DNA of 62,277 bases from Candidatus Uhrbacteria bacterium (GCA_943359525.1 CALRHV010000004.1:1-62277); one strand, 5' to 3'. Counted from the first letter of the stretch, positions 28,132 through 58,131 are shown. Translations and numbers: made by a program. Notes: generated from the sequence alone by a model not told the origin.

Positions 28132-30066
28132 ATGGTCTCTCTCCGTGAACGTGACAACGGAACAAATGGGAAACGCCTCCGAATGTTGCGTGGGGTTCTT
28201 TTTGCGGTGTTTGGCGTGATTTGGGTTCGATTGTTTGTGCTGCAGGTGGTCTCCGCACAGTTTTATCAAGACGCTGCAAACGGAAAATCTTCCTTGTACG
28301 AAGTGTTGGTTCCGGAGCGCGGCAAGATTACGGTTCACGACTTTGATGACGACACGCCATACGATGTCGCGACGAATGAGCCGCGCGCTGTCGTTATCGC
28401 GAATCCGAGTAAGATTACGGATGCGGCAGATTCTGGAAAACGTATTGCTCAGGCGTTGGGATGGGAAGGCGTCGATGCGTATGATCGCTACGCCCTCATT
28501 GCGAGTCTAGAATCTCAAGGAAAACAGGACGAAGCTGATTCGCTCCGATCATTAACAGCGTGTGCTCCTGTTCCCGAGCCTTCAGTCGATATCTCTCCCC
28601 CTTCACAAGGGGGAGTCGGAGGGGGTGTTGCCGAGATCGCGCCGGTCGCCGAGTCTGCTGAGTGTGCTCAAGAATCCACAGCCGTCAAAAAAATTACTGA
28701 TTTTATTACTCGCCTTGGAAAGCACGACGACCCTTGGGAGCCGGTGGCACAGGGTGTTGATGCAGAGTCGCTCGATCGATTATTGGCGTTGAAGATTGAG
28801 GGGATTTCGTATGTGCTCAAGGATTCTCGGTCGTATCCGGAAAAAGGTTTTGGTGGCCATGTTTTGGGGTTCGTAGGCAGAAACGATGCGGACAGTGCGG
28901 TTGGACAATACGGCCTTGAAGGATATTTCGATGACTTCTTGGCAGGAAAGCCTGGTGAAATCTTTTCTCAGCTCGGAAGCAGGGCCTACACCCCGGCGAT
29001 CGACGGAGGGTCGTTGGTGTTAACTATTGATCGCACCGTCCAATACACTGCGTGTAAAATGCTTCGTGAAGCTGTTGCAAAGTACAGCGCCGATAGCGGT
29101 ACGCTCGTTATTGTTGAGCCATCAACGGGCCGTGTGCTTGCAATGTGCGGTGCGCCAGATTTTGATCCTGGCGTGTATTCGGAAGTCGATAGTATTGCCA
29201 CGTACAACAACCAAGCGATCTTTACGCCGTACGAGCCTGGTTCTATTTTTAAACCATTTACACTTGCTGCCGGAATTGACGCTGGCGCGATTACGCCAAA
29301 TACCACGTTTAATGATCCTGGATTCGTGAAAGTTGATGACCGAACGATTCGCAACGCGTCGGATAAGACGCACGGATTGATTACTATGACTTTTGGCTTG
29401 GAGGAGTCTGTGAACACCGCAATGGTCTATGCAATGCAGCGCACCGGTCGGGATACATTTACGCAGTATGTAAAGAACTTTGGATTCGGAACGCTGACGG
29501 GCATTACGCTGAATTCCGAGGTTGCTGGCACCATCGCCTCCCTCGACGAACCGGGAATTGTGTATGCAGCAACGGCGAGTTTCGGACAAGGAATTACCGT
29601 AACTCCACTCCAGGTGGCTATGGCATATGCCGCAATCGCGAATGGCGGGGCGCTGATGGTTCCGCAGATTGTTGATGAAATGCAATATTCCGACGGCACC
29701 GTTGATACAATTCTGCCAGAAAAAATTCGGCACGTTATTGACGCAAAAACTGCAGTGACTGTTGGCGGCATGTTGGTGTCGGTGGTGGAGAATGGACACG
29801 GAAAGCGCGCAAAGGTTCCGGGGTATTGGATTGCGGGGAAGACGGGAACCGCGCAGATTGCTCAAAGCGGAGGATATTCGGAAACAGCGTTTAACGGATC
29901 GTTTGCCGGATTCGGGCCGGTTGAAGATCCAAAATTCGCGATGGTGGTGAAAATCGAAAATCCAAAGTCCGACACTATTCTTTTTGCTGAAAGCACAGCC
30001 GCCCCTCTCTTTGGCCAGATTGCGAAATTCCTCCTTGAGTATTATCGGATTGCACCGACGAGGTGA
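28132..30066 (+). CDS. ftsI: Class B penicillin-binding protein (FtsI/PBP2-like)
   Basis: PERGKI, RSYP, GQYGLEGYFD, YEPGSIFK (SxxK), ESVN (SxN), FGQG, GKTGTAQ (KTG). Confidence 0.9.
   Translation: MVSLRERDNGTNGKRLRMLRGVLFAVFGVIWVRLFVLQVVSAQFYQDAANGKSSLYEVLVPERGKITVHDFDDDTPYDVATNEPRAVVIANPSKITDAADSGKRIAQALGWEGVDAYDRYALIASLESQGKQDEADSLRSLTACAPVPEPSVDISPPSQGGVGGGVAEIAPVAESAECAQESTAVKKITDFITRLGKHDDPWEPVAQGVDAESLDRLLALKIEGISYVLKDSRSYPEKGFGGHVLGFVGRNDADSAVGQYGLEGYFDDFLAGKPGEIFSQLGSRAYTPAIDGGSLVLTIDRTVQYTACKMLREAVAKYSADSGTLVIVEPSTGRVLAMCGAPDFDPGVYSEVDSIATYNNQAIFTPYEPGSIFKPFTLAAGIDAGAITPNTTFNDPGFVKVDDRTIRNASDKTHGLITMTFGLEESVNTAMVYAMQRTGRDTFTQYVKNFGFGTLTGITLNSEVAGTIASLDEPGIVYAATASFGQGITVTPLQVAMAYAAIANGGALMVPQIVDEMQYSDGTVDTILPEKIRHVIDAKTAVTVGGMLVSVVENGHGKRAKVPGYWIAGKTGTAQIAQSGGYSETAFNGSFAGFGPVEDPKFAMVVKIENPKSDTILFAESTAAPLFGQIAKFLLEYYRIAPTR
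28588..28625 (+). repeat. REP-like repeat family D inserted in-frame in ftsI
   Basis: GATATCTCTCCCCCTTCACAAGGGGGAGTCGGAGGGGG; encodes ISPPSQGGVGGG; homolog at 57861. Confidence 0.75.
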
Positions 30067-30097
30067 TGGACCTGAACTGATTTTTTGAATGGTATAT

Positions 30098-30175
30098 CAG
30101 TCATCCCCGCGCAGGCGGGGATCCAGACTGTTCGATCCTGTGTGTTATGGATCCCCGCCTGCGCGGGGATGACTG
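30098..30175. repeat. Inverted doublet of REP family A
   Basis: CAGTCATCCCCGCGCAGGCGGGGATCCA ... TGGATCCCCGCCTGCGCGGGGATGACTG. Confidence 0.9.
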
Positions 30176-30234
30176 AGGGTGAACATAGATGCATGTCTTC
30201 CGATTTCGCCTTTTTTCACATACACTTCCCACAT

Positions 30235-31524
30235 ATGAAGCCTCTCATTATCCGCGTGCTCCGATACCTCGCCAAGCGCCAAATTGCCACGTTTCATCCA
30301 ATGGTTATTGCAGTTACTGGGTCTGTCGGAAAAACGAGCACGAAAAATGCCATCGCGATTGCGTTGGGTTCTGAACATGACGTGCGATCGGCAAACAAGA
30401 ATTACAACAACGAGTTTGGGGTGCCGTTGGCGATTATGGGGGAGATGAGTCCGGGGAAAAATGTTTGGGAGTGGTTGAAGCTTTTTGTGCGCCAGTACAG
30501 CGTAAAGACATTCCCAACGCATCTTGTTCTTGAATACGGCGCCGATCGTCCTGGAGATATTCAAGCGTCGTGCGACATTGTAAAACCAAATGTTGCGGTG
30601 CTCACAGCAATCTCTCCAGTTCACGTATCGAATTACACCAACTTTGGTGCACTCGCCGATGAAAAAGCAACAATCGGTGATAATGTTGCAGAAGATGGTC
30701 TGGTCATTTTGAACGCCGACGATCAAACGGTGAATCTCATGCGTGATCGTTTCGCGGCAACAACAGCGACGTACGGAAAGTCTGGACGCCAAGCGAACAT
30801 TAAAGATATTTATGTAAAGACCGCGCTCGACGACCACTACGCGCCAAACGATGTTGCGGTGCTCACAAAAGCCGCGATTGAGATCGACGGCGAAACGGTC
30901 GATCTCAAACTTCCAAATTGTTTAGGCGATACTCCGGTGTTTGCGTGTGCTGCGGCGTTGCTTGTTGCGAAGCATTGTGACGTTCCGTTGAAAAAGGCGG
31001 CGAAAGCATTGAGCGAGTCGTTTGCTCCGGCGCCAGGACGACTCCGACCACTCGCGGGGATTAAGGGATCGCTCATCCTCGACGACACGTACAACGCTGC
31101 GCCAGCATCAACGATCGCCGCGCTCGATGCTCTCGCATTATTCACTGCAGATCGACCGGGTAGTCGTCGCATCGCAGCCCTTGGAAAAATGGCAGAGCTT
31201 GGTCAATACTCGGAAGCGGAACACGCAGCGGTCGGTCGCCGAGTCTCCGAGGTCACCGATATCTTTGTTGCGACCGGTAGCGAGATGCAGGGTGCCGCCG
31301 ATGAAGCCGAACGGATGGGAATGAAATCAACCACGGTGATTCGTGTGCACGACGCGGTGGAGGCCGGCCGATGGCTTGATGCGAACATCAAAGAAGGCGA
31401 TATCGTTCTCGTCAAAGGTTCACAATCTGCACGAATGGAAAAAGCGGCAAAAGACATCATCGCCGAGCCCCTCCGCGCATCGGAACTTCTTGTTCGTCAG
31501 GAAGAATACTGGATGAAGAATTAA
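30235..31524 (+). CDS. murF: UDP-MurNAc-tripeptide--D-Ala-D-Ala ligase
   Basis: AVTGSVGKTSTK, NNEFGVP, LEYGAD, LDDTYNAAP, LGKMAELG, VLVKGS. True start taken at MKPL because the ORF-track extension is REP-derived. Confidence 0.9.
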   Translation: MKPLIIRVLRYLAKRQIATFHPMVIAVTGSVGKTSTKNAIAIALGSEHDVRSANKNYNNEFGVPLAIMGEMSPGKNVWEWLKLFVRQYSVKTFPTHLVLEYGADRPGDIQASCDIVKPNVAVLTAISPVHVSNYTNFGALADEKATIGDNVAEDGLVILNADDQTVNLMRDRFAATTATYGKSGRQANIKDIYVKTALDDHYAPNDVAVLTKAAIEIDGETVDLKLPNCLGDTPVFACAAALLVAKHCDVPLKKAAKALSESFAPAPGRLRPLAGIKGSLILDDTYNAAPASTIAALDALALFTADRPGSRRIAALGKMAELGQYSEAEHAAVGRRVSEVTDIFVATGSEMQGAADEAERMGMKSTTVIRVHDAVEAGRWLDANIKEGDIVLVKGSQSARMEKAAKDIIAEPLRASELLVRQEEYWMKN

Positions 31525-31531
31525 AATATTC

Positions 31532-32671
31532 ATGAATTTGGATATGTTGTCGTACGATGTTGCAATTATTGGTGCTGGAATGGCAGGGCTTGCTTGTGCG
31601 AGAACTCTCGAAGAAAGAGGGGTTAATTTTGTACTGATCGCACCAAATATTGGTGGAGATGTGCGGGCAGATCATGGGGCAAATATGGGGGCATATCTTC
31701 TTACCCCGTCTGCGCAAAAACTCATCCCAAGCATGAAGGCAGAAAAGCGAGTCTGGCTAGGAAACACCATCTTTTGGGGAGATACAGTTCAACCAATTTA
31801 TAAACGAGCACTCTCGCCTCATCTGTTGTCCTTGTATAAAAAACTTCGTCATTTTCGAAAGCAATTTCTTCAATTCCAACAGGACGAGGCACAGATCGGT
31901 TTGATTTCTGCACTATCTCGGTCTCCAGACCTTCAAGGTCTTCAGCGTGTTGCATTCGTTGACTATGCAGGAGATGCGTTCTCCGTGGCAGAACGTTTGC
32001 TTCTTTCGGTTGCAGTAGATCCTGTGGTGCGAATGTGTACACTTGCCGAACCAGCGGAACTTTCTGCTTTTGAATATTTGCATGTAGCGATGCATATCGA
32101 TATTCCTGTACACACATTTATTTTCGATGCTGATACTTTTATTCAGCCTTTTGCTGAACGGTACATTAAAGAGAGTGTAACGGCCGTGGAGCATACTTCT
32201 TGCGGATGGCGAATTACTACACAACATGGAGAATGCGTTACTGCGAATTCCCTTGTTGCCGCGAATGGAGCGCATCATTCCCCTCATCTTTTTGCCGAGC
32301 TTCCTGTTTCGGATACACGGTTTGCGTCATGCATACTCTTTCATGTTCGTGGAACGATTCGTTCTCAGTTTTCTGGCCAGTTACATGTGTTTCCGGTGGG
32401 ACATCCCGTATATTTTTTACAGGATCAAGGAGACGGAACGGTGATTATTGCCTTGAAGGACGATGGGGATTCATATGAAAATTTTGTTCGTGTTGAGGAG
32501 GTATTGAGTAAGGCTACATGGAAAAAAGCTTTTCCAATTGGTCCTAGGGAATGGACTAATCCAAAGATTTCTGAAAATCTTTACATATTAAATGATCGAA
32601 ATATTGTCGGCATAGAAGATTCCTATCGTTCTGGCTTGTGGGTGGGAAGAGCGCTCGTAGACTCACGATAA
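31532..32671 (+). CDS. FAD-dependent oxidoreductase, unknown substrate
   Basis: DVAIIGAGMAGLACA Rossmann motif; visibly AT-richer than flanks. Confidence 0.7.
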   Translation: MNLDMLSYDVAIIGAGMAGLACARTLEERGVNFVLIAPNIGGDVRADHGANMGAYLLTPSAQKLIPSMKAEKRVWLGNTIFWGDTVQPIYKRALSPHLLSLYKKLRHFRKQFLQFQQDEAQIGLISALSRSPDLQGLQRVAFVDYAGDAFSVAERLLLSVAVDPVVRMCTLAEPAELSAFEYLHVAMHIDIPVHTFIFDADTFIQPFAERYIKESVTAVEHTSCGWRITTQHGECVTANSLVAANGAHHSPHLFAELPVSDTRFASCILFHVRGTIRSQFSGQLHVFPVGHPVYFLQDQGDGTVIIALKDDGDSYENFVRVEEVLSKATWKKAFPIGPREWTNPKISENLYILNDRNIVGIEDSYRSGLWVGRALVDSR

Positions 32672-32673
32672 AT

Positions 32674-33279
32674 ATGCGCATTACAACGAACCTCGATGCT
32701 GCGATTGCGTGTTTGAAATCTGGTGGCATTGTCGTCTATCCCACAGAAACATCGTATGGAATTGGGTGTGATGCTACGAATGCTGCTGCGGTCGCCAAAG
32801 TATTTTCAATCAAGAATCGCCCTTTGGATAAGGGTGTGACGGTGCTTTTGTCTGCGAATGATCCTTTCGGTGATGTGCATGTGCTTTGGCGATCGGAGCT
32901 TCACGATCTTGCAGCTAAACATTGGCCGGGTCCGTTGAATATTGTCTGTTCGATTACGGCAACCTCATCGATTGCGCCACAGTGTCTCACTAATGGAACG
33001 ATCGCCACACGCCGATCAAGCCATCTCATCGCAAACGCTCTCGTCGACGCGCTTGGCGTTCCCCTTGTTTCTACGAGTGCGAATATTTCTGGAGAATCCG
33101 AACTTTACAGCGCCCAAGGAATCTACGATCGATTGAGTAGTGAGTCGATTCAGCCAGATGTGATTTTCGATGTAGGTGAATTACCAAAACGCGCACCGTC
33201 CACACTCGTTACGTGGGACGATGCGCGGGGTGAGGTAAAGGTGTTGTGGCAAGGGGAGATTGTTCTTGCGAATTGTTAG
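32674..33279 (+). CDS. tsaC: L-threonylcarbamoyladenylate synthase (Sua5/YrdC/TsaC)
   Basis: YPTETSYGIG, IKNRP, HWPGPL, LVSTSANISG, PST. Confidence 0.9.
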   Translation: MRITTNLDAAIACLKSGGIVVYPTETSYGIGCDATNAAAVAKVFSIKNRPLDKGVTVLLSANDPFGDVHVLWRSELHDLAAKHWPGPLNIVCSITATSSIAPQCLTNGTIATRRSSHLIANALVDALGVPLVSTSANISGESELYSAQGIYDRLSSESIQPDVIFDVGELPKRAPSTLVTWDDARGEVKVLWQGEIVLANC

Positions 33280-33680
33280 GAGTTCCCGACGTTGCCCCTC
33301 GTTTCAACCAGGTCTCCGAACTGGTTTAACGTTGATATCCTGGAAAGTATTTCTTGAATTTTCTCGCCGTAAGGTTCGGTTGATTGATAAACGCTGCGGA
33401 TTTTTTCGGACAATGCGTCCCACTGCTCAGCGAGTTTCTTTTTAGATTCTGAATCCACGTCAGTATTTTGGAGTGCGACGGTTACAGCATTCTGAGCGGC
33501 GGATAGCTCATTCAAATTCAGATGTAGTTCGAGTGCATCCCTTTCATTTCGTATCGTGTCAATCAATGTAAAGAGTCGTTCTACCTCCTTTGTTGTTTTT
33601 TTAAGGTGCGTTGTCGCATTATTTATCCGTTCGGTTGTCGCTTGAACCATTGCGAGCTTTTCTTGATCGATCGGCTTCAT
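33276..33680 (-). CDS. Coiled-coil hypothetical protein
   Basis: MKPIDQEK...; heptad-like, AT-rich; ORF-track upstream extension lies in the glmS duplicate. Confidence 0.55.
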   Translation of the reverse strand: MKPIDQEKLAMVQATTERINNATTHLKKTTKEVERLFTLIDTIRNERDALELHLNLNELSAAQNAVTVALQNTDVDSESKKKLAEQWDALSEKIRSVYQSTEPYGEKIQEILSRISTLNQFGDLVETRGNVGNS

Positions 33681-33691
33681 ATAAAAATAGT

Positions 33692-33790
33692 TTAGTCCAC
33701 TGTCACAGCCTTCGCAAGATTGCGGGGACGGTCGGGGTTGATATCTTTGAGCACGGCAAGTTCGTAAGCAAGGATTTGAAGGGGGATGTT
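33692..33790 (-). pseudogene. Duplicated 3' end of glmS (99 bp), att-like direct repeat
   Basis: Encodes [32 protein letters not shown]; 91/99 nt identical to 34510-34608. Confidence 0.9.
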
Positions 33791-33886
33791 GGTACAACAG
33801 AAGAGGCATTGATTAGCCCGATAAAAACATCATCGGCGCCCCCCGCGTTATGCGAAGGGCGCCGTTGTCGTACGTGACGGGCGGTT

Positions 33887-34509: not shown

Positions 34510-36333
34510 TTAATCCACGGTTACAGCCTTCGCAAGATTGCGGGGACGGTCTGGGTTGATATCTTTGAGCACGGCAAGTTCGTAGGCGAGGAGTTGGAGG
34601 GGGATGTTCGCCACAAGGCCGGTGAGGACACCGTTTTTTGGAACGATGATGGTTTCTGAGGCAACGCGTTCTGCGAGCTTTGGATTGTCGGTGATAATGA
34701 TGGTTCGTGCGCCACGAGCTCGTACTTCTTCGGCGGCGGTTCGCATGAGCTGACCATGTTGATCATCGAAGATACAGAGAATCACCGGCGTGTTTTCCAC
34801 GATGAGTGCGAATGGCCCGTGCTTCAGCGCGCCGCCAGCATACCCTTCGGCATGGAGATAGGTAATCTCTTTAATCTTTAGCGCACCTTCTCGAGCAATT
34901 GATTCGCATGGCCCTTTTCCGAGCACGAAGCAATGCTCGGCATCCACGAGGGTTTTTGCGATCTCCTTACACGTTTCGCGAGTGTTGAGCGCGATTTTCA
35001 CGAGCGTTGGCAAGCGACGAAGTTCGTCGATGAGATGACGGCGACGCTCAGCTTCGGTACCGCGATGCATGCTGAACCACGCGGCAATCATTTCGAGTGC
35101 GACGACTTGCGTGCTAAATGCTTTCGTCGATGCTACTGCATGTTCGCGACCAGCGTTGAGGTACACGCCACATTTTGTGCTTCGCGCAATGAGCGATCCA
35201 ACCGCGTTTATCACCGAGAATGTTGGCACACCGCGATCTTGGGCAATGACGAGCGCGCGATGGGTGTCCTTTGTTTCGCCGGATTGTGAAATCACGAGTA
35301 GGCCGGCGCCGTGTGGAGCGAAGTGATGTTCGGTGATTTCGGATGCGTCGACTACTTGCACGGTGTCGAAGGCCTTCAACGCTCGCATACCAAGTGCACC
35401 GTACATGCCGGCGTGAAGCGATGTTCCGCACGCGGCGATGACCAGGTGTTTTATGCCGAGGAGTGTTTCTTTGTTGCGTTCCAGTCCGCCGAGCTTCATC
35501 TCGAGATCCGTTGGAATACGTGCGCCGTGGTTGAGTGTTCGTGCAAGCGCGTCGGGTTGCTCCATGATTTCCTTGATGGTCCAGTGTGGAAAAGGAGCGG
35601 GGGAGAGCTCGATGACTTCTTCTGGCGCAAGCTCGACTCGTGAAGTATCGAGTGTGGTGCCTTCCGGAGTGATCAGCGCGAACTCGCCGTTTTGTAATGC
35701 GATGAACTCGCGGGTGTGATTGTTGAATGCCGACGGTTCGCTCGCAACGTACATGGTTCCTTTTCCAACGCCAACCACCAGAGGACTGCCGTTTCGAGCT
35801 GCCAGAATCGTATTTGGCATCAGCGGAGAGACGACTGCGACGCCCCACGTGCCTTCAAGTTTCGCAAGGGCGTGCTTCGTCGCCACGTCCAATCCCTCGC
35901 CGTCGTCGAGGTATTTTCCGATGAGTTGGGCGATGATTTCTGTATCAGTTTGAGATTTGAAAACAATTCCCAAGGCTTCGAGATCGGCCTTGAGCATGTG
36001 CGCGTTCTCGATAATGCCGTTGTGGACGAGGGCAAGACGATTCTTCATGTCCGAGTGGGGATGGGCGTTGGCATCCGTTTTTCCACCATGTGTTGCCCAA
36101 CGGGTATGGCCAATGCCAGATCGATTCCCGACGTGGTCGGCGATATGTTCTCGAAGTTTCACGATGGCATCGGGAGCAACGCCGCTCGCGAACTTTGTCG
36201 TGACAATCGTTCCAGCGTCCGAAACCGTCGCCACGCCAGCAGAATCGTATCCACGGCTTTCCAAAATCGAAAGCCCGTCAATAATTATGCTGACACTATT
36301 TGTATCCCCAACAACCCCGATGATTCCACACAT
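34510..36333 (-). CDS. glmS: Glutamine--fructose-6-phosphate aminotransferase
   Basis: [57 protein letters not shown]. Confidence 0.97.
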   Translation of the reverse strand: MCGIIGVVGDTNSVSIIIDGLSILESRGYDSAGVATVSDAGTIVTTKFASGVAPDAIVKLREHIADHVGNRSGIGHTRWATHGGKTDANAHPHSDMKNRLALVHNGIIENAHMLKADLEALGIVFKSQTDTEIIAQLIGKYLDDGEGLDVATKHALAKLEGTWGVAVVSPLMPNTILAARNGSPLVVGVGKGTMYVASEPSAFNNHTREFIALQNGEFALITPEGTTLDTSRVELAPEEVIELSPAPFPHWTIKEIMEQPDALARTLNHGARIPTDLEMKLGGLERNKETLLGIKHLVIAACGTSLHAGMYGALGMRALKAFDTVQVVDASEITEHHFAPHGAGLLVISQSGETKDTHRALVIAQDRGVPTFSVINAVGSLIARSTKCGVYLNAGREHAVASTKAFSTQVVALEMIAAWFSMHRGTEAERRRHLIDELRRLPTLVKIALNTRETCKEIAKTLVDAEHCFVLGKGPCESIAREGALKIKEITYLHAEGYAGGALKHGPFALIVENTPVILCIFDDQHGQLMRTAAEEVRARGARTIIITDNPKLAERVASETIIVPKNGVLTGLVANIPLQLLAYELAVLKDINPDRPRNLAKAVTVD

Positions 36334-41474: not shown

Positions 41475-41712
41475 AAAGAAACTGACCTTGGAATGGGTTG
41501 TGACGGAACGGCTGGGATTTGCATCTTCGGCGACTTGGCATGTTCGATTTTGAATATTGCGAGTGTAAAGACCTCTTTACACTTTTCTGATGGAAAACCT
41601 CAATAAAAGTGTAGATTGATATGTAAAGAGGTCTTTACACTCACGGATTGGGAAATCGAGTACCCCAAGCTCACAAGTCCCTTCTTTTTTCAAAGAATCA
41701 GTTTCAGATCCA
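41475..41712. repeat. Structured intergenic element with GTGTAAAGAGGTCTTTACAC palindrome doublet
   Basis: 82-bp core 41561-41642 matches the reverse complement of 58217-58298; flanks also homologous. Confidence 0.85.
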
Positions 41713-42476: not shown

Positions 42477-43079
42477 ATGACGCAAGACGAATCACAGAAT
42501 CCAGGATCGAATTTGGTCGGGGACAAGGAAGCGAATGTCAGTCATCCTGAGCATAGCGAAGGATCTCCCGCAGATTCCGGTCATCCCCGCGCAGGCGGGG
42601 ATCCATCATCAGATCTCGAAGCCCTTCAAACCAAATGCGCCGAATACCTCTCCGGCTGGAAGCGTGCTCTCGCAGACTACGAAAACCTTCAAAAGCAAAA
42701 CTCCAGCGCCCGCGATGATGATCGCCGACGCGTTCGATCGAATCTCGCAGAAGACTTGCTCCCCGTCGTCGACAACTTCGGCTACGTCACGAAGCACGTT
42801 CCCGACATCAGCGAGTGTCCTGAAGAGTTCAAGAAAAAGTTCGACACCTGGTTCCAAGGCATCGGCCATATTGAACGCCAATTCGCGGAAGCGATGAAAG
42901 GACTCGGCGTTGAGCCGATTGAAAGCATCGGCACGATCTTCGACCCGAACCTTCACGAAAGCGGCGGCTCGCGATCGGAACCTGGAAAGAAAGAACACGA
43001 GATCGTGGAAGAACTCATCAAGGGCTGGAAGATCGGTGACGTTGTTCTGCGACCTGCAAAAGTAATCGTTAATGAATAA
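42477..43079 (+). CDS. grpE: Nucleotide exchange factor GrpE with REP-derived N-terminal insert
   Basis: [41 protein letters not shown]. Confidence 0.93.
42541..42605 (+). repeat. Two REP units (family B and family A) in-frame in grpE
   Basis: GTCATCCTGAGCATAGCGAAGGATCTC (42541-42567) and GTCATCCCCGCGCAGGCGGGGATCCA (42580-42605). Confidence 0.9.
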
Positions 43080-43083: not shown

Positions 43084-45003
43084 ATGTCAAAGATCCTCGG
43101 TATCGATTTAGGGACAACAAACTCATGTGTAGCAATCATGGAAGGCGGACAGCCGAAGGTGTTGGAGAATAAGGAGGGAATGCGAACCACGCCATCCATC
43201 ATCGCGGTTGCGAAGAATGGTGAGCGACTTGTGGGGCAACCTGCAAAGCGACAGGCGGTGACGAATCCAAAAAACACTCTTTATTCGATTAAGCGATTGA
43301 TCGGACGACGGTTTAAGGATGAGGAAGTACAGCGCGATATCAAACTGATGCCGTTTGCGATTGTGGCGCGGGGTGAGGGAATTGCGATCAAGATGGGAGA
43401 GAAGGATTTTTCTCCGCAGGAAATCGCGGCAATGGTGCTTGGAAAGATTAAGGCGGATGCGGAGGAGAAGACGGGGGAGAAGATTACTGAAGCCGTCATC
43501 ACCGTTCCTGCATATTTCGATGATGCGCAGCGTCAGGCAACGAAAGATGCTGGTGAGATCGCAGGTTTGAAAGTCTTGCGTATTATCAACGAACCAACCG
43601 CTGCTGCATTGGCGTATGGTTTTGATAAGAAGGTTGGTCAAAAAATCGTTGTGTACGATCTTGGTGGAGGAACGTTCGATGTGTCGGTGCTCGATGTTTC
43701 CGAGGGAACTGTCGAAGTTCTCGCAACAAACGGTGACACGCATCTTGGTGGCGACGACTTCGATCTGACCATCATGAAGTGGATTCTTGATGAGTTTAAG
43801 AAGCTTGAAGGAATCGACCTTTCTGGTGATGCATTGGCGATGCAGCGTATTAAGGACGCGGCAGAACGTGCGAAGATTGAATTATCTACCGCGCAAACAA
43901 CGGAAATCAACCAACCATTCATCACGTCCGGAGCTGAAGGGCCAAAGCATTTGGTGATGTCGCTTTCACGATCGAAACTCGAGGAACTTGTTGGCGGACT
44001 CGTCGATAAAACGATGGAGCCAGTGAAGAAAGCGCTTGCGGATGCGAAGATGGATGCGAAGGCAATCGGCGAGATCGTGATGGTGGGAGGTATGACCCGT
44101 ATGCCACTCGTGCTTTCGAAAGTTGAAGCGTTCTTTGGAAAGAAACCAAACGTGACGGTGAACCCAGATGAGGTCGTCGCTGTTGGCGCTGCGGTGCAGG
44201 CTGGTGTGATGCAGGGCGATGTGAAGGATGTGCTGTTGCTCGATGTTGCCCCACTGAGCCTTGGAATCGAAACCATGGGAAGCGTGTTCACAAAGTTGAT
44301 CGATCGCAACACCACGATTCCAACCAGCAAGTCGCAGGTGTTCTCGACTGCTTCCGACAACCAGCCAGCCGTAACGATTCGCGTCGGCCAGGGCGAGCGC
44401 CCAATGTTTAATGACAACAAAATTCTTGGTCAGTTCGATCTCTCTGGAATCCCGCCAGCACCTCGCGGTGTTCCGCAGATTGAGGTGAAGTTCGATATCG
44501 ATGCGAACGGAATCTTGCACGTATCAGCAACAGACAAGGCGACGAATAAAGCACAGACGATTACGATCACGTCATCGTCAGGCTTGAGCAAGGAAGAAAT
44601 TGAGAAGATGAAGGCCGATGCAGAATCGCACGCCACCGAAGACAAGGCAAAGCAAGAACTCATCGAAGCGCGCAATATTGCGGATACCATGATGTACACC
44701 GTGGAGAAAATGCTTGTCGATAATAAGGACAAGGTTTCTGAAGAGGACAAAAAGATTCTCGAGGAGAAGATGGAGGCAGTAAAGAAAGTGAAGGATACTG
44801 ATGATCTGGAAGCAATCAAAGCTGCTGGCGATGATCTTTCAAAAGAGGCTCAGCGTGTTGGTGGCGCGATGTATTCCAAGGACGACGCTGCAAAGAATGC
44901 TGACGCGAGTCATCCTGAGGGCACCGAAGGATCTCCGTTGGAATCAGAGGCGAAAGATGCAGAGTTCACGGAGAAGAAGGACGATGGTGCTTCGCAGAGT
45001 TAA
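43084..45003 (+). CDS. dnaK: Chaperone DnaK (Hsp70)
   Basis: [56 protein letters not shown]. Confidence 0.98.
44909..44935 (+). repeat. REP family B unit in-frame in the dnaK C-terminal tail
   Basis: GTCATCCTGAGGGCACCGAAGGATCTC encodes SHPEGTEGS. Confidence 0.85.
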
Positions 45004-49078: not shown

Positions 49079-49088
49079 TATCTTGGTT

Positions 49089-49156
49089 CGTCATCCCCGC
49101 GTAGGCGGGGATCCATCACTCCGAACAATCTGGATCCCCGCCTACGCGGGGATGAC
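49089..49156. repeat. Inverted doublet of REP family A between convergent genes
   Basis: CGTCATCCCCGCGTAGGCGGGGATCCA ... TGGATCCCCGCCTACGCGGGGATGAC. Confidence 0.9.
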
Positions 49157-52667: not shown

Positions 52668-52747
52668 TTAATTGTTGCAACGCCGGGAATATACCTATTT
52701 TGGGACGCTTCGTCAATTGGTTGCGCGCTACTTCTTTTTGGCTTTTT

Positions 52748-53134: not shown

Positions 53135-53135
53135 T

Positions 53136-54077: not shown

Positions 54078-54098
54078 ATCTATGATGCAACCTGAGTA

Positions 54099-55070
54099 TT
54101 AAAGGGTAACCAGTATTTCGTCGAGCACCGCTTCAATCTCCTCGCGTGTTTTCACCGTCATCATCTTTTCGCGGTGCGATTTTACGTGAGGCAAACCTTT
54201 GAAATACCAGGACATGTGCTTGCGGAATGTGGTTACCGATTCTGGTCCGTACTGCTCAAGATGTAATGCAAGATGCATTTTTACGACACGAATACGTTCC
54301 TTGAGTGTGACTGGTTCGGGTGTTTTCCCTGCAGCAATTTCCTTGAACTGTTTAAAAATCCACGGATTGCCTAGCGCGCCGCGAGCAATGAGTACGCCGT
54401 CGCAACTGGAAATATCGATTGCCGTTTGAATGAGTTCTGCTTTGTGTACGTCGCCATTACATAATACCGGAATTGAAACGGCCTGTTTTACTTTACCCAC
54501 CGCTTCCCAGTCCGCAACACCAGAGTATCCTTGCATTCGCGTTCGGCCGTGAACGGTGAGGAGATCTACTCCTGCGTCCTCGAGCACCTTCGCAAAGGTT
54601 ATTGCGTCTGTTGGATCAGACCAGCCCAATCGAATCTTTACCGATATCGGCACCGATGTGACCGATCGCATTGCCTTAACAATCGCCGCGGCACGTTCTG
54701 GTTCCTTCATGAGCGCGGCGCCATTGAAGTTGCTCACAATCTTGTACACCGGGCAACCCATGTTCACGTCGAAACCTTCGGGATGATGTTCGGCCTCGAT
54801 GATACGCGTCGCTTCAGCCATCGTTGCGGGATCGCTTCCAAAGAGTTGCTGTACGAGTGGCCGCTCGTCGTCGTGAATCGCGGCCATGCCGAGCGTTTTG
54901 TCGTTTCCACGAATCACCGCCTCAGACGACACCATTTCGCGGAACATGATGAGCGGAGTCTCGCCGGTGACCGCCTTCACCACACGGCAAAACGCACTGT
55001 CGGTCATGTCCGCCATGGGGGAGAGGGCGACGATAGGTCGCGGAAGGGTTTTCCAATCGAGGATAGCCAT
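54099..55070 (-). CDS. dusB: tRNA-dihydrouridine synthase (DusB-like)
   Basis: LSPMADMTD, QLFGSDP, DVNMGCP, VKIRLG, LTVHGRT, NGDV, IARGALGNPW. Confidence 0.93.
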   Translation of the reverse strand: MAILDWKTLPRPIVALSPMADMTDSAFCRVVKAVTGETPLIMFREMVSSEAVIRGNDKTLGMAAIHDDERPLVQQLFGSDPATMAEATRIIEAEHHPEGFDVNMGCPVYKIVSNFNGAALMKEPERAAAIVKAMRSVTSVPISVKIRLGWSDPTDAITFAKVLEDAGVDLLTVHGRTRMQGYSGVADWEAVGKVKQAVSIPVLCNGDVHKAELIQTAIDISSCDGVLIARGALGNPWIFKQFKEIAAGKTPEPVTLKERIRVVKMHLALHLEQYGPESVTTFRKHMSWYFKGLPHVKSHREKMMTVKTREEIEAVLDEILVTL

Positions 55071-55103
55071 AGAAGAACCTCTAGTATGCTACAATCCGGA
55101 CAT

Positions 55104-55328
55104 ATGACGCAAATGATTGAGTTTAATGAAGAAGAGCTTTTCGAGACAATCGTTGAGGAAGGGCATGTACAAGGGATTGCCGACGAAGCAGCGTATTTTG
55201 ATCTTATCGATGAAACCATCGAAGATTTGCGCAGTGTCGCAGAATTGAACGACGATCAGAATCTTGATAGTCATGCCGAGCACCTGAAGGCGCGGTTCCG
55301 GGAATACATGGATCGGCAAGCAGAATAG
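55104..55328 (+). CDS. Small acidic hypothetical protein
   Basis: MTQMIEFNEE...; TGCTACAAT 8 nt upstream; abuts the next gene. Confidence 0.55.
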   Translation: MTQMIEFNEEELFETIVEEGHVQGIADEAAYFDLIDETIEDLRSVAELNDDQNLDSHAEHLKARFREYMDRQAE

Positions 55329-55333
55329 TGATT

Positions 55334-56695
55334 ATGCGCCTCACCTTTTACGGTGCCGTGGAAAGCGTGACTGGATCATGTTTTTTGCTGGAAACGCCAA
55401 AGGGGAAGCTCCTTATTGATTGCGGGATGCATCAGGGTGAGCGCATGTGTTCGAAGGTGAATCTCGAACCGTTCGGATTTCAACCGGAGCATATTGACGC
55501 CGTGGTCGTCACACATGCACATTTCGATCATACCGGTCGCTTGCCAGATCTCGTGAAGCAAGGCTACAAGGGAAAGATTTTCATGACGCCGCCGACTAAG
55601 GCGTTGATGCAGCTTGTTCTTGAGGACTCCGTGCACATCATGGCGGAGAACGCCAAGAAGTGCGGGGATCCGGTGGTGTATGAGAAGGCGGATCTTCATG
55701 CGATGCTCGAGCAGGTTGTGACCGTTCCGTATCATCACATTACATCGCCACTCGAGGGAGTGAGCGTGGAGTTTTTTGACGCCGGACATATTCTTGGATC
55801 GTCGTTCATTCGTGTGGTGGTAGACGACACTGGCGAATCAAAAACGCTTATCTTCAGCGGTGACGTGGGAAATGACGACGTACCGATTTTGCCGGATACA
55901 GAGATCCGACCTGAAGCGGATTACGTAATCTGTGAATCAACGTACGGCGCGAAAGATCATGAAAAATCTGCAGTGCGTGAACCGATGCTTGCGGATTTTG
56001 TAAAAAAGGTTATTGGACGAGGAGGGACGTTGATGATCCCGGCGTTTTCAATTGAGCGTACACAGGAATTGTTGTTCGCGCTCGATCAGCTGCTCCAGCG
56101 CGGTGAGATCCCATCGATCCCAATGTACCTTGATAGCCCACTCGCGATTCGTGCCACGGAGCTTTATCGTTTCTTTAGCGAGTATCTTTCCTTCGAGCAT
56201 CCTGCTGCGCCAGGGAAGGATGGCGACTGGTTCCGATTCCCGTCGCTTACTGAAACACTCACCCCAGATGCTTCGAAAATAATCAACGATGATAAGCGTC
56301 CAAAAGTCATCATCGCCGGCAACGGCATGATGACTGGTGGCAGAATATTGCATCACATGGCGCGCTACATCGACGACGCGAAATCCGGCCTGCTCATCAT
56401 TGGCTATCAAGCCGACCATACACTCGGTCGAAAAATTCAGAACGGTGCAACTGACATCAATATTTACGGAGAAAAACACTCGGTTCGCGCCGAGTTACTC
56501 ACGATCGACGCTTTCTCGGCACATGGCGACCAAAAGAAACTTACGACGTTTGTTCGTGGAAACGGTGTGCCACCAAAGCGGGTATTCTTGGTGCACGGCG
56601 AGGGGCCAATTAAAGATACATTCGCAACGCACCTTCGTGCTTCACTTGGCGTTGAAGTTGAGGTTCCTCATGTGATGCAAACGTATGAGCTTTAA
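55334..56695 (+). CDS. MBL-fold/beta-CASP ribonuclease (Ysh1/Cft2-like)
   Basis: IDCGMHQG, THAHFDHTG, AGHILGS, SGDVG, ESTYG, FSIERTQE, FSAHGD, VHGE. Confidence 0.92.
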   Translation: MRLTFYGAVESVTGSCFLLETPKGKLLIDCGMHQGERMCSKVNLEPFGFQPEHIDAVVVTHAHFDHTGRLPDLVKQGYKGKIFMTPPTKALMQLVLEDSVHIMAENAKKCGDPVVYEKADLHAMLEQVVTVPYHHITSPLEGVSVEFFDAGHILGSSFIRVVVDDTGESKTLIFSGDVGNDDVPILPDTEIRPEADYVICESTYGAKDHEKSAVREPMLADFVKKVIGRGGTLMIPAFSIERTQELLFALDQLLQRGEIPSIPMYLDSPLAIRATELYRFFSEYLSFEHPAAPGKDGDWFRFPSLTETLTPDASKIINDDKRPKVIIAGNGMMTGGRILHHMARYIDDAKSGLLIIGYQADHTLGRKIQNGATDINIYGEKHSVRAELLTIDAFSAHGDQKKLTTFVRGNGVPPKRVFLVHGEGPIKDTFATHLRASLGVEVEVPHVMQTYEL

Positions 56696-57251
56696 AGCGA
56701 TCATCGCAAATAAAACTTTTGTTCTCGCCGGGATGGTGATTGTACTTTCGGCGGTGTTGGTTATTGGCAGACACTTTGATGCGAGCTGGGCTGGGGGAGA
56801 AGGGTATCGTGCACGATCGGAGATTGTTGTGGTTGAACAGACCGATCCATCATCTGACATCGGATGTGAGGAGGTCGATGCATCGAGGAAAAATATATTG
56901 TCGTGTGGATCGATGATGAAGATTGCTTTTGGCTCGTCGATCATTTGGATGGACGCAAAGACATCACTCGTCGTGATCAATGATCGTGAGGGAAAAGAAG
57001 AGCTCGCGTTGTATGGTGGTCGAATCGTTGTCGATGGTCCGGTTGTTGTCGATGTTCGAGATCAGCAGTTTTCGGCATCGGAACCGATGAGTATTGTGAA
57101 TTATGGTTGGTTGTATCGCGTTGATGTGTTATTGATGGAGCAAGATACTGCGAAGAGTTTTGACACGTTGCCGCCGTATGACGAACCAAAAGACATCGAA
57201 TTCAGCACGCAAAGCGAAAGCGTCAAAGACTTCTACGACTGGGCGCATTGA
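56685..57251 (+). CDS. Hypothetical membrane-anchored protein (possible FecR-like beta domain)
   Basis: N-terminal TM followed by beta-strand-rich sequence. Confidence 0.5.
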   Translation: MSFKAIIANKTFVLAGMVIVLSAVLVIGRHFDASWAGGEGYRARSEIVVVEQTDPSSDIGCEEVDASRKNILSCGSMMKIAFGSSIIWMDAKTSLVVINDREGKEELALYGGRIVVDGPVVVDVRDQQFSASEPMSIVNYGWLYRVDVLLMEQDTAKSFDTLPPYDEPKDIEFSTQSESVKDFYDWAH

Positions 57252-58131
57252 GGAATTTCATAAGATTGTTTTTGATTGGTTCAGGGTTCATCGGCGCGAC
57301 CTTCCTTGGCGGAGAACCACCGATCCGTACGCTATTGCACTTTCCGAGATCATGCTCCAGCAAACACAAGTCGATCGCGTTATTCCAAAATGGCGTGCAT
57401 TTCTTTTGGCGTTTCCCACGTGGAGTGATCTTGCGAGTGCATCCACGGCGGATGTGATCCGATTGTGGCAGGGGCTTGGCTACAACCGTCGTGCCGTTAT
57501 GCTTCATCGATTAGCGAAGGCCGTGATCGATCTCGGCAGGGAGCTTCCCGATGATATCGATGCAATGAAGAAGCTTCCTGGTATTGGCGACTACACCGCG
57601 AACGCAATCGCAGCCTTTGCATTTCGCAATCCCGACGCTGCACCAGTCGATACAAATATTTCGAGAATCTTCCGTCGCGTATTTCCTCGTCATCGATCTG
57701 ACCCGAAGTCGATGCAGCGACTAGCTCGATCGATCCGTCCAGCCGATGTCTGGACGTGGAATCACGCACTCATGGACATCGGAGCGCTTCACTGCTCGGC
57801 GCGAGGTCATGTTTGGGGTTTATGTCCGTTGGCTCCTCTTCATGGATCGAAAGAGCCTAAGATATCTCTCCACCCATTTATGGGGGGAGTCGGAGGGGGG
57901 CTTGTACGTGCGAAGAAGGCGATCAAATTCGAATCCACCGATCGCTACTTCCGCGGCCGAATCGTCGATGCCCTCCGCGAATCGCCGATGATGCTGAAGA
58001 AACTTCGTCTCCGATCGGAGCTTGCGGGCCTCGAAGAAGCTCGATTTCAGACCTTGATTTCGAAGCTTGTGCATGGCGGTGTCGTCGAACAGTACAAAAG
58101 TACGGTATTCTTGGCGGGTGATCGGGACTGA
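57178..58131 (+). CDS. mutY: A/G-specific adenine glycosylase (MutY-like HhH-GPD), degenerate Fe-S motif
   Basis: RRDLPWRR, SEIMLQQTQV, GLGYNRRA, LPGIGDYTA, PVDTNISR, ALMDIGA; start uncertain. Confidence 0.85.
   Translation: MTNQKTSNSARKAKASKTSTTGRIEEFHKIVFDWFRVHRRDLPWRRTTDPYAIALSEIMLQQTQVDRVIPKWRAFLLAFPTWSDLASASTADVIRLWQGLGYNRRAVMLHRLAKAVIDLGRELPDDIDAMKKLPGIGDYTANAIAAFAFRNPDAAPVDTNISRIFRRVFPRHRSDPKSMQRLARSIRPADVWTWNHALMDIGALHCSARGHVWGLCPLAPLHGSKEPKISLHPFMGGVGGGLVRAKKAIKFESTDRYFRGRIVDALRESPMMLKKLRLRSELAGLEEARFQTLISKLVHGGVVEQYKSTVFLAGDRD
57861..57900 (+). repeat. REP-like repeat family D inserted in-frame in mutY
   Basis: GATATCTCTCCACCCATTTATGGGGGGAGTCGGAGGGGGG; encodes ISLHPFMGGVGGG. Confidence 0.75.

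Follow-up and report, generated by a model that had tools for sequence, protein, structure and literature searches.

Sequence identity of the two window copies

The window analysed here, 62,277 nucleotides of a Candidatus Uhrbacteria genome, carries almost the same C-run and G-run sequence in a penicillin-binding protein (PBP) gene and in a MutY-like gene, raising the question of whether a useful peptide or a mobile stretch of DNA is what the two genes have in common. We consider it probable (roughly 0.8) that both belong to a dispersed repeat that is selfish at the level of DNA and of the BoxC/PIT/TMECO kind, surviving between genes or in linker-coding DNA, with its spread tied to DUF559. The positions of the copies, their arms and their host segments are listed in Table 1.

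Table 1. Repeat copies, arms and host features in the window.
Feature	Position	Strand	Remark
Class B penicillin-binding protein (FtsI/PBP2-like, 644 aa)	28132..30066	+	Pfam PBP_dimer, Transpeptidase
Hypervariable PBP loop Cys144-Cys178, tolerant site with copy 1	28561..28665	+	Orthologue alignment, AlphaFold coil
Repeat copy 1 (GATATC prefix + putative triplex motif)	28588..28627	+	In frame in PBP gene (DISPPSQGGVGGG)
Copy 1 pyrimidine (Y) arm CTCCCCCTT	28595..28603	+	Watson-Crick partner of 28607-28615
Copy 1 purine (R) arm AAGGGGGAG	28607..28615	+	Loop 1 = CAC, 28604-28606
Copy 1 mirror (reverse-Hoogsteen-type) arm GAGGGGGTG	28619..28627	+	After linker TCG, 28616-28618
HhH-GPD glycosylase, MutY-type catalytic + non-NUDIX C-terminal domain	57178..58131	+	Pfam, PDB matches, homologues
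Disordered inter-domain linker of glycosylase, tolerant site with copy 2	57844..57927	+	AlphaFold, orthologues
Repeat copy 2 (putative triplex motif)	57861..57900	+	In frame in MutY-like gene (ISLHPFMGGVGGG)
Copy 2 Y arm CTCCACCC	57868..57875	+	Loop 1 = ATTTAT, 57876-57881
Copy 2 R arm GGGGGGAG	57882..57889	+	Explicit finder
Copy 2 mirror arm GAGGGGGG	57893..57900	+	After linker TCG, 57890-57892

Both copies follow the pattern GATATCTCTCC(C/A)CC-loop-GGGGGAGTCGGAGGGGG; copy 1 reads GATATC TCTCCCCCTT CAC AAGGGGGAG TCG GAGGGGGTG and copy 2 reads GATATC TCTCCACCC ATTTAT GGGGGGAG TCG GAGGGGGG. The shared stretch is 38–40 nt, and the likeness breaks off sharply at both element ends. A structure-based finder, whose parts are in order Y arm, loop, R arm, linker and mirror arm, returned exactly two sites over the 62 kb, in agreement with the initial annotation both on their positions (28588 and 57861) and on the lack of an intergenic copy in the window. 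The same finder detected zero motifs in 100 second-order Markov surrogates, and the 16-mer GGGGGAGTCGGAGGGG occurs twice exactly, against a chance expectation of 0.20 even with three mismatches permitted. Chance likeness of low-complexity G/C runs, for which the richness of the sequence in such runs and the non-significant RNA folding of 56-nt windows (z = −1.2 to −1.6) might speak, is already refuted by these counts, by the sharp edges, and by the recurrence of the exact subfamily in the same metagenome-assembled genome (MAG) and in related metagenome contigs. The PBP gene with its element is present both in an NCBI MAG and in a Logan assembly made independently, which rules out an assembly artefact. 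Copy 2 is slightly decayed, a C-to-A change in its Y arm producing an A/G mismatch; an intact sister lies at L140:2784-2818.

Arm architecture and triplex code

In both copies the arms stand on one strand in the order 5'-Y, loop, R, loop, reverse-Hoogsteen-3', and the third arm mirrors the R arm under the code G.G:C, A.A:T and T.A:T. Set antiparallel to the R arm, the mirror arm of copy 1 gives 6 G.G, 1 A.A, 1 T.A and 1 mismatch (8/9 triplets), while in copy 2 all 8 of 8 triplets fit, one lying over a Watson-Crick mismatch. Copy 1, with 9-nt stems, loops of 3 and 3 nt and one mismatch, and copy 2, with 8-nt stems, loops of 6 and 3 nt and one mismatch, both lie within the ITxF limits of 6–15 nt stems, at most one mismatch in stems longer than 7 nt and loops of 1–6 nt (PMC4666352). 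The DNA hairpins of the 41-nt cores are modestly significant (copy 1, −9.6 kcal/mol, z = −2.6; copy 2, −7.5 kcal/mol, z = −3.0); the DNA and RNA folding tools used cover hairpins only, triplexes lying outside both models.

The mirror rule was assessed in 82 sites with a hairpin and a G-rich tail, comprising about 38 arm types and picked independently of the search pattern. The tail fits the R-arm mirror better than a direct repeat in 61 sites and worse in 8 (sign test, 3e-11), and a perfect tail fit (G to G, A to A/T) was obtained for the mirror in 50/82 sites versus 10/82 for the direct repeat. On the mirror symmetry, which is statistically strong and the sole structural evidence here, we class the element as a class II purine-motif intrastrand triplex motif of the BoxC/PIT/TMECO kind, present in a Patescibacteria (Uhrbacteria-like) MAG with a sequence of its own. 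The initial annotation had described a CCCC/GGGG palindrome; the repeat family stands, but it is more than a palindrome, as the mirror tail makes the motif tripartite. A single strand so designed could form a hairpin, with the tail occupying its major groove. For TMECO, which is built in the same way, CD and NMR are reported to show a stable triplex of the isolated single strand (Holder 2015, PMC4666352); no stable triplex was found in double-stranded DNA or by in vivo DMS footprinting (PMC4666352).

Reading frames and polymorphism of coding copies

Translation confirmed the earlier observation that the 3' halves of the two copies share a frame, GGVGGG being encoded in both, whereas the conserved 5' halves are read in two frames because the loops differ by 1 nt. 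This MAG has a third near-identical copy, translated as LSPHLWGESEGG, in a GT4 glycosyltransferase gene on a different contig; it differs from the MutY copy by 1 nt, yet the two are read in different frames. At the GT4 site of a relative the element is in reverse orientation, and in the GT4 gene and in orthologues the element DNA is translated as GESEGG, GESEGV or GEVEGV. Five of the six reading frames of the element are free of stops, and GGVGGG merely arises from one of these open frames as a by-product.

Copies 1 and 2 and the GT4 copy all lie inside ORFs with Pfam domains on either side, and two further repeat families of the window are carried in frame in GrpE and DnaK. The claim that in-frame carriage is general in this genome is borne out by the GT4 copy and by these other families. 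In other phyla, in-frame motifs were found in LigA, PheT, a CCA-adding enzyme, a TonB-dependent receptor and, at one and the same linker in two phyla, MetH. Alignment of orthologues, which the initial annotation had proposed for the inserts, demonstrated that the same sites may lack the element or carry it in other, nested or reversed form. The polymorphism in presence, orientation and frame shows that the entry or turnover of copies took place in the DNA and did not depend on the protein; the two frames of the window copies, the different reading in GT4 and the orthologue polymorphism uphold the proposal that an independent C-run/G-run family has invaded coding DNA.

Selection at the protein level, by which the two enzymes would have gained convergently from a Gly-rich GGVGGG loop and codon choice would account for the DNA likeness, could draw on the in-frame GGVGGG of both copies and on the commonness of Gly/Pro-rich linkers. 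It is already contradicted by the two frames of the 5' half, by the alternative peptides from the same DNA, by the reverse copy at the GT4 site, by close orthologues that lack the element and by copies elsewhere that flank or separate genes, and we regard it as very improbable. The mirror covariation, a property of nucleic acid, likewise speaks against it. Under the preferred reading of a DNA-level repeat, insertions in a gene-dense Patescibacteria genome would survive only in intergenic or linker-coding DNA, and linker copies would give rise to Pro/Ser...Gly-rich peptides that do no harm, GGVGGG itself having no function of its own.

Host loops and linkers

AlphaFold models of the two hosts have mean pLDDT values of 90.6 and 91.0, with the elements in their sole low-confidence internal segments; modelling had been suggested as a test of surface-loop placement, and both sites are predicted as loops between folded parts. 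In the PBP, whose gene is followed downstream by a Mur ligase gene, DISPPSQGGVGGG corresponds to residues 153-165, within a predicted coil at 140-175 (pLDDT ~60-63 at residues 151-170). The insert had been described as about 60 aa flanked by two Cys; the Cys flanks are there, but Cys144-Cys178 encloses 33 residues, and what this lineage has in excess of short PBPs extends beyond the Cys loop, to ~70 aa. No copy could be recognised in the nearest PBP orthologue (86% identity), which might nevertheless contain a decayed remnant (CCCCTTCCGAGGAGG). Other PBP orthologues carry different, nested or inverted copies within the same loop, including an insertion of another repeat family nested inside a motif.

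The glycosylase ORF is open from 57160 and its start is uncertain, giving a 323-codon ORF and a 317-aa form; (K)ISLHPFMGGVGGG occupies residues 234-247 of the former. In 317-aa numbering, the model has a coil at 223-250 with pLDDT <50 at 235-243, and PDB matches stop at about residue 218-224. The assignment as MutY holds for the catalytic domain but not for the whole protein, the C-terminal domain being non-NUDIX and the clade retaining only 2/4 cluster cysteines. The linker is indel-rich among orthologues, where five or more distinct states were seen at this one site.

No target-site duplication or clean empty-site/filled-site pair could be defined at the PBP, MutY and GT4 sites because the host linkers are too variable; given this and the possible PBP remnant, insertion as opposed to long residence with turnover is unproven for each single site. 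The known destabilising tendency of the repeat may add to the extreme indel variability of these linkers. Linkers of housekeeping proteins tolerate these motifs, which are renewed there time and again and may be a source of length variation; in genomes that are small and dense in genes they may also cause assembly breaks. Annotators who meet a Pro...Gly-rich "low-complexity" peptide in a metagenomic protein may be looking at a translated repeat.

Position and orientation of copies with respect to an RNA role

If the element worked mainly as RNA, the hairpin with its two Shine-Dalgarno-like GGAGG boxes would make ribosomes pause where domains meet, or would protect transcripts, and would be retained on that account. 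RNA is able to form the hairpin, GGAG/GGAGG occurs twice, and coding copies lie at domain boundaries, the G-rich strand being the sense strand in most of those examined. Nevertheless, both orientations occur at the GT4 site and in other genes (L070, L048), and A-to-T changes in the tail match the purine-motif triplex code rather than anti-SD pairing. E. coli copies favour neither strand and act neither as promoters nor as terminators, and the purine-motif triplex type does not form in RNA (PMC4666352). Rfam, at gathering and permissive thresholds, gave no match at the 28588 or 57861 site. We therefore consider an RNA role improbable.

Range of the motif family

The family is pan-bacterial and elsewhere mostly intergenic. 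A scan of genome contigs yielded at least 120 motif loci across many phyla, in which copies flank genes or lie between them, with inverted doublets in Gallionellaceae, Alphaproteobacteria and others; in this MAG, about 68 kb contain five copies or more. Stop-to-stop ORF cover overestimates coding in high-GC genomes and was used only comparatively, individual cases being judged by Pfam. A 5' GTAG-type tetranucleotide is not conserved in the flanks of about 130 copies, the prefix in this clade being GATAT(C). A metagenome scan demanding the GATATC prefix gave 13 loci, only two of which (L130 and L132) belong to this subfamily; the remainder, high in GC and from soil, are tandem units of a different type.

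Association with DUF559 nuclease genes

BoxC/PIT/TM repeats have been known since the 1990s and are abundant in enterobacteria, cyanobacteria, Neisseria and, from the present scan, many uncultured phyla; we are not aware of any function, any origin or any means of spread established for these repeats. We likewise know of no role for DUF559, a very widespread family. DUF559 genes adjoin motifs or lie between them in this MAG, other Patescibacteria, Alphaproteobacteria (two loci with the same adjacency), IMG/VR contigs and E. coli (ycjD); none was found in the window itself. In L140, a contig of the window's MAG, and in L130, the gene lies between two inverted motifs, with its start and stop inside element sequence, and it is DUF559 (PF04480 + PF18741), not a Y1 transposase. 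Element-encoded termini recur in 5/6 nearest homologues (P0243-P0247, not P0242). PDB matches of DUF559 were 3HRL and, weakly, 3R3P, a homing-endonuclease domain.

Among 70 IMG/VR loci selected solely for DUF559, 11/19 motifs are no more than 300 bp away from the gene, although just 18.8% of bases are that close (binomial, 1.8e-4), and the gene is bracketed on both sides at 0–26 bp in 3 loci. Counting against the association, 66/70 of these loci have no motif beside the gene and 65/70 no motif at all, and only 3/140 motif-selected loci contain a DUF559 gene. The last count indicates that the link runs from DUF559 to a motif neighbour and not the reverse, and DUF559 as a general neighbour of motifs was discarded on it.

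In E. coli, a TMECO lies ~170 bp downstream of ycjD and a degenerate one spans its stop codon. The gene is present in 3378/5426 genomes. In an evenly spaced genome sample, ycjD+ chromosomes have 13–30 query-matching places, mostly TMECO-like (median 21, n = 37), and ycjD− chromosomes 1–21 (median 6, n = 20; Mann-Whitney, 5e-9), a correlation confounded by phylogroup; some ycjD− genomes still have 12–21 motifs. As to whether ycjD and TMECO were lost as one clean unit, ~38% of E. coli genomes break colinearity beside the TMECO, and the one genome inspected has an unrelated island at the break.

We infer that DUF559 mobilises the motifs because the gene adjoins them in this genome and in distant lineages, most clearly between inverted copies. 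Spread would then depend on the DUF559 (Vsr-like PD-(D/E)XK) gene, in an arrangement that resembles a RAYT gene between its REPs, and we conjecture that the nuclease nicks folded single-stranded DNA in a structure-specific way and that copying or insertion through repair then follows. A more specific proposal, which we advance tentatively and at less than even odds, is that intrastrand-triplex repeats have their cognate nucleases in the DUF559 proteins (E. coli YcjD and its many homologues). The autonomous unit would be the nuclease gene together with its position next to inverted motifs or between them, and the hundreds of solo motifs (among them those translated in FtsI, MutY, MetH, LigA and others) would be non-autonomous offspring. 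If true, this would be a counterpart of RAYT/REP that mobilises DNA by means of a Vsr-like PD-(D/E)XK fold, acting structure-specifically on folded single-stranded DNA. Literature searches on DUF559, on BoxC plus YcjD and on intrastrand triplexes returned no paper connecting them, and the reproducible physical link offers a handle both on the spreading of BoxC/PIT/TM repeats and on the role of DUF559.

The strongest competing explanation is that an IS200/IS605- or RAYT-type single-strand transposase moves the element, or that no dedicated enzyme does (replication slippage, template switching or ectopic gene conversion), with DUF559 a mere neighbour that, for example, inserts into motif doublets. 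It is consistent with the REP-like size and hairpin form, with the inverted doublets in several lineages, with the predominance of motif loci that lack DUF559, and with the nested repeat insertion, which suggests that motifs are themselves targets. Against it stand the absence of a conserved GTAG-type 5' tetranucleotide, the recurrence of DUF559 bracketing at 0–26 bp across unrelated lineages and the tracking of motif number with ycjD in E. coli, and we judge it unlikely, if a serious contender.

Comparison with known repeat systems

REP/REPIN sequences resemble the window repeat as short (20–40 nt), G/C-rich hairpins that often form inverted doublets, and the single-copy RAYT gene resembles DUF559 as a putative cognate enzyme flanked by inverted repeat copies. 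REPs, however, are extragenic imperfect palindromes with a 5' GTAG-like tetranucleotide and an HUH/Y1 transposase, whereas the window repeat has a third mirror arm, lacks that tetranucleotide and is accompanied by a Vsr-like PD-(D/E)XK nuclease; it was not assigned to REP/REPIN-RAYT.

Rickettsia palindromic elements (RPE) share in-frame insertion into unrelated protein genes of a small genome and tolerance in surface or linker segments free of stop codons. They are ~100-150 bp long, confined to Rickettsia, unlike the present element in sequence and translated into a longer peptide, with no triplex-type mirror arm or known partner gene; in-frame carriage alone is common to them and the 38–40 nt element, which is not an RPE. 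Coxiella QMITEs are MITEs that contribute coding sequence (PMC5896051), and like the window repeat they are non-autonomous, lie inside ORFs and add peptide segments. MITEs are longer and have IS-derived terminal inverted repeats and target-site duplications, features absent from the window repeat; no direct repeats flank the element at six aligned copies, and at just 38–40 nt it was not placed among MITEs.

The closest relatives are BoxC/PIT/TMECO (Hoyne & Maher 2000; PMC4666352), which share the Y arm, the loop of 3–6 nt, the R arm, the loop of ~3 nt and the mirror arm, the same pairing code, a comparable overall length (37–40 nt), and highly conserved dispersed copies, some in inverted doublets, amid unusually variable DNA. 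The arms differ, being CTCTCCCCC/GGGGGAG/GAGGGGG in the window repeat and CCCTCNCCC/GGGNGAGGG/GGGNGAGGG in TMECO, so that the element is not TMECO sensu stricto (CCCTCNCCC N3-6 GGGNGAGGG N3 GGGNGAGGG). E. coli TMECO were reported as always intergenic and no mobile-element link was found for them (Holder et al., PMC4666352), whereas the window and GT4 copies lie inside ORFs and the present repeat is translated within essential-type genes of Patescibacteria. BoxC/PIT/TMECO have no reported gene partner, in contrast to the DUF559 gene beside or between the present motifs. The class itself is already described; the DUF559 neighbourhood is a new lead. As a control, the same scripts recognised a true TMECO in E. 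coli.

Two unrelated genes carry copies of one DNA-level repeat

The initial annotation held that a repeat family encoding a GGVGGG peptide had entered the FtsI and MutY genes, and both copies were confirmed: the 16-mer GGGGGAGTCGGAGGGG occurs exactly twice in the window, with 0.2 occurrences expected even when three mismatches are allowed. Aligned with their flanks, the two copies have about 40 nt in common, with sharp edges and no likeness beyond them. The first host is a 644-aa class B penicillin-binding protein (PBP) with PBP_dimer and Transpeptidase domains, and a Mur ligase gene lies directly downstream. The second host is a glycosylase whose catalytic domain matches MutY structures; these PDB matches stop at about residue 218–224 of the 317-aa form, and the protein lacks a NUDIX-type C-terminal domain. 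Copy 1 is not an assembly artefact: the NCBI MAG GCA_943356565.1 and an independent Logan assembly both carry the PBP gene with its element. By its homologues the host organism belongs to Patescibacteria, close to Candidatus Uhrbacteria.

The encoded peptides and the shared reading frame of the 3′ halves were correct as originally described. The 5′ half GATATCTCTCC is conserved, yet its frames differ between the PBP and glycosylase genes, which points to a nucleotide-level element; a 1-nt loop difference sets the 5′ halves apart and brings the 3′ halves back into a common frame. Each copy is free of stop codons in five of its six reading frames.

Table. Positions and sequences of the triplex-type motif and of other repeats in the window and its MAG.
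Feature	Position	Sequence	Location or character
Motif, copy 1	28588-28627	GATATCTCTCCCCCTTCACAAGGGGGAGTCGGAGGGGGTG	within class B penicillin-binding protein gene
Motif, copy 2	57861-57900	GATATCTCTCCACCCATTTATGGGGGGAGTCGGAGGGGGG	within HhH-GPD glycosylase gene
Motif, 38-mer form		ATCTCTCCCCCTTCACAAGGGGGAGTCGGAGGGGGTG	
Motif, third copy	L140:2784-2818 (other contig of the same MAG)		GT4 glycosyltransferase gene
Tail repeat	42525-42568, 44893-44936	(A)GTCATCCTGAG..GCGAAGGATCTCC	GrpE N-terminal tail, DnaK C-terminal tail
Hairpin repeat	5441-5470, 30097-30126, 42577-42606, 49087-49116	GTCATCCCCGCGCAGGCGGGGATCC	simple hairpin, no mirror tail
Paired palindrome, 22 nt	41560-41581, 41620-41641, 58216-58237, 58274-58295	AGTGTAAAGAGGTCTTTACACT	near-perfect; pairs 58 nt apart
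99-nt duplication	33692-33790, 34510-34608		92% identical; 3′ ends of two minus-strand ORFs (33276-33809, 177 aa; 34510-36333, 607 aa)
Tandem 21-nt units	22517-22588		three 7-codon repeats inside ORF 22441-22863

The repeat is built like a class II intrastrand triplex

The hairpin arms of copy 1 pair as CTCCCCCTT/AAGGGGGAG; those of copy 2, CTCCACCC/GGGGGGAG, contain a single mismatch. After a TCG linker follows the tail GAGGGGG(TG), the purine arm reversed, which reads as a mirror repeat and not as an inverted repeat. To examine this pattern more widely, all fetched loci were scanned for perfect pyrimidine/purine hairpins with a G-rich tail, and sites matching the original search pattern were left out to avoid circularity. 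Among the resulting 82 unique sites, with about 38 arm sequences, 61 had a tail closer to the mirror of the purine arm than to a direct copy, and 8 a tail less close to it (sign test 3e-11), and a perfect fit (G opposite G, A opposite A/T) was obtained for 50/82 mirror pairings vs 10/82 direct copies. Examples of arm and tail are GGAGGGG with GGGGAGG, AGGGAGAAGG with GGAAGAGGG, and GGGGGAGAGGG with GGGTGAGGGGG. This mirror pattern is the code predicted for an antiparallel purine-motif triplex. An architecture finder returned exactly two sites in the 62-kb window, both already reported, and no motif in 100 second-order Markov surrogates, so that the match is better than expected from G/C runs by chance.

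The E. coli BoxC repeats were later re-described as "potential intrastrand triplex" elements, named TMECO by Holder et al. 2015, with the form CCCTCNCCC N3-6 GGGNGAGGG N3 GGGNGAGGG (PMC4666352). CD and NMR showed a stable triplex for TMECO as an isolated strand; stable triplexes were undetected in vivo, and in RNA purine-motif triplexes do not form (PMC4666352). Comparison of strains shows unusual rearrangement at the motif loci, and TMECO was tied neither to mobile elements nor to a common function of flanking genes (PMC4666352). The window copies fit the structural definition of this triplex class. Unlike TMECO, whose 23 copies in E. coli MG1655 are all intergenic (PMC4666352), they have another sequence, which does not match the TMECO consensus, and they lie inside ORFs rather than between genes. 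We show that the two belong to a dispersed repeat built on the class II intrastrand triplex plan. The kind of repeat is known; its sequence variant, its host group and its genomic niche, translated linkers, are new.

Orthologues differ in the presence, frame and orientation of the motif

In the PBP, the element lies between Cys144 and Cys178, both conserved in the near clade, and even orthologues that are 80–86% identical differ in the length and sequence of the intervening segment. Locus DNA was compared in four of these. The closest, P0002 (86%), has no recognisable motif at the locus, where a decayed remnant is possible; P0004 has ACTCCCCCTTTCGAAGGGGGAGATGGAGGGGGTATC. In P0007, a GATATC-prefixed copy is split by a second, unrelated palindrome, a nested insertion. 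P0031 has two copies, one reversed with arm and tail types swapped and the other read in a different frame as SPPFMGEVEGV. The orthologue alignment of the PBP insert revealed a hypervariable loop, with the motif unrecognised in the closest relative and other, nested or reversed copies elsewhere.

The glycosylase linker, just past the catalytic domain, likewise occurs in several states among orthologues. It may contain the same insert, as in P0121 (88% identity), a related motif read as PPPYEGGGRGEV, the same tail DNA encoding GESEGV, a different repeat family (SHASLSHPERSEGSP), short remnants, or no insert at all. One genome probably encodes both P0121 and P0005, a PBP orthologue free of the motif; in that case the insertion in MutY would predate that in the PBP.

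AlphaFold models built from 118-sequence alignments place both elements in low-confidence coil, in line with the proposed loop placement. The PBP model has a mean pLDDT of 90.6, falling to about 60–63 at residues 151–170, between helices 132–139 and 176–195; the glycosylase model has a mean of 91.0, with values below 50 at residues 235–243, within the linker 223–250.

The third copy, 1 nt different from the MutY copy, lies in the linker that joins the two domains of a GT4 glycosyltransferase and is read as LSPHLWGESEGG. There, the motif is reversed in two related assemblies, whose contigs end inside it; one other relative has a GGAAAAT tandem, and another has nothing. Taken together, these comparisons show that the window copies and related motifs are gained and lost as DNA in linker-coding segments that tolerate them, whatever the orientation and whichever open frame is used, and that the encoded peptides are by-products. 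The earlier interpretation is supported and sharpened. In a gene-dense genome, selection would keep insertions only where they are harmless, and the reported instability of the motif may help to explain why indels in these proteins are most frequent in exactly these linkers.

The glycosylase belongs to a MutY-like clade that has two of the four [4Fe-4S] loop cysteines, in the form HCSARGHVWGLCPLAPLHG (window 57160-58131, aa about 205–225), vs C..C..C..C in the cluster loop of more distant homologues. Its C-terminal domain is helical and winged-helix-like in place of a NUDIX-type domain.

The motif family is pan-bacterial

A scan of a genome collection with a loose pattern yielded at least 120 motif loci. 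The listed motif-bearing taxa comprise Gallionellaceae, Bacteroidales, Alphaproteobacteria, Planctomycetota, Anaerolineae, Nitrospiria, Omnitrophica and several Patescibacteria lineages, and matches across so many lineages make the family pan-bacterial. In other genomes, motifs are rarer inside long ORFs (34–50%) than random positions are (64–82%) by a crude ORF measure. In-frame cases nevertheless recur: MetH carries independent motifs in Prevotella (L006:3431-3461) and Anaerolineaceae (L079:1703-1735), both in the linker from the pterin-binding to the B12-binding domain. Further examples were found in a TonB-dependent receptor, NAD-dependent DNA ligase, CCA-adding enzyme and Wzy-type ligase, and PheT has two in-frame copies.

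A Bacteroidales contig (L081:6749-7687) has three triplex motifs spaced 453–454 nt apart, a long tandem unit with one motif per unit. Three soil metagenome contigs (L127, L131, L134) have tandem 64-nt units with GATATCCCTCCCCCC..GGGGGAGGAGG and a second G/C-rich block, a different kind of repeat caught by the GATATC-anchored scan.

A DUF559 nuclease gene is associated with the motif

In L130, a metagenome contig with the same exact subfamily, two inverted motifs 390 bp apart enclose a 156-codon DUF559 (Vsr-like PD-(D/E)XK) gene, whose start MIEAPSDSPINGGEK and end DDISPPFMGESEGALV are element sequence. Five of its six nearest homologues (P0243–P0247, 55–58% identity) have the same element-encoded termini, which are absent from the called protein of the sixth, P0242 (63%). 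The window's own MAG encodes P0243; its gene lies between Wzy_C and GT4 genes and is likewise flanked by inverted motifs. Among 140 motif-selected loci, three have a DUF559 gene, all within 9–130 bp of motifs.

The DUF559 gene of E. coli K-12, ycjD, is followed on the same strand, after about 170 bp, by a canonical TMECO, and its stop codon is overlain by a degenerate BoxC-like hairpin. At 23 motifs per 4.6 Mb, any one gene would have a motif no more than 400 bp away with a probability of about 0.004. An independent sample selected for DUF559 only (70 IMG/VR loci, 397 kb in total) contained 19 motifs, 11 of them no more than 300 bp from the gene, in a zone covering 18.8% of bases (binomial 1.8e-4), and in L152, L161 and L156 the gene is bracketed by motifs on both sides at 0–26 bp. 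The ycjD gene is accessory in E. coli (3378/5426 complete genomes, 62%). In an evenly spaced genome sample, places matching a query of ycjD and its TMECO numbered 13–30 in chromosomes with the gene (median 21, n=37) and 1–21 in those lacking it (median 6, n=20; Mann-Whitney 5e-9), a proxy for TMECO-like copies rather than a motif census and a comparison confounded by phylogroup. Solo motifs and DUF559 genes mostly occur apart.

DUF559 matches PDB 3HRL and, weakly, 3R3P, the catalytic domain of a homing endonuclease. We hypothesize that the enzyme of the element would be the DUF559 nuclease, whose gene is next to inverted motifs or enclosed by them, a placement like that of RAYT genes between REPs; the support for this is consistent but indirect. 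A literature search found no link of DUF559 or YcjD with BoxC or triplex repeats, and the association seems to be new. Through it, the old question of how these repeats are spread becomes open to direct tests.

At L149 (E. coli K-12 1351.0–1351.8 kb) and L150, K-12 colinearity breaks less than about 40 bp from TMECO in the 38% of genomes without ycjD; one inspected genome has a TetR and RND efflux island at the break beside the ycjD TMECO.

Other repeat families of the window

The repeat GTCATCCTGAGC...GCGAAGGATCTCC is translated in both the GrpE and DnaK tails. One relative of this family fills the MutY linker elsewhere (SHASLSHPERSEGSP), and another splits the PBP triplex motif of P0007. One copy of the hairpin repeat is in frame in the GrpE N-terminal tail. 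The translations VIPAQAGIQ ... WIPACAGMT suggest inverted doublets of this repeat in two intergenic regions, between ftsI and the mur ligase gene and after dnaX. The NCBI contig of the MAG stops just short of the former doublet, and these repeats therefore probably break short-read assemblies.

One pair of the 22-nt palindrome lies upstream of the ORFs preceding grpE-dnaK and the other just past the glycosylase gene; it could be a candidate operator of a heat-shock-type regulon. Of the two ORFs sharing the 99-nt duplication, the longer is GlmS-like by synteny with locus L125, and the shorter may be a partial duplicate.
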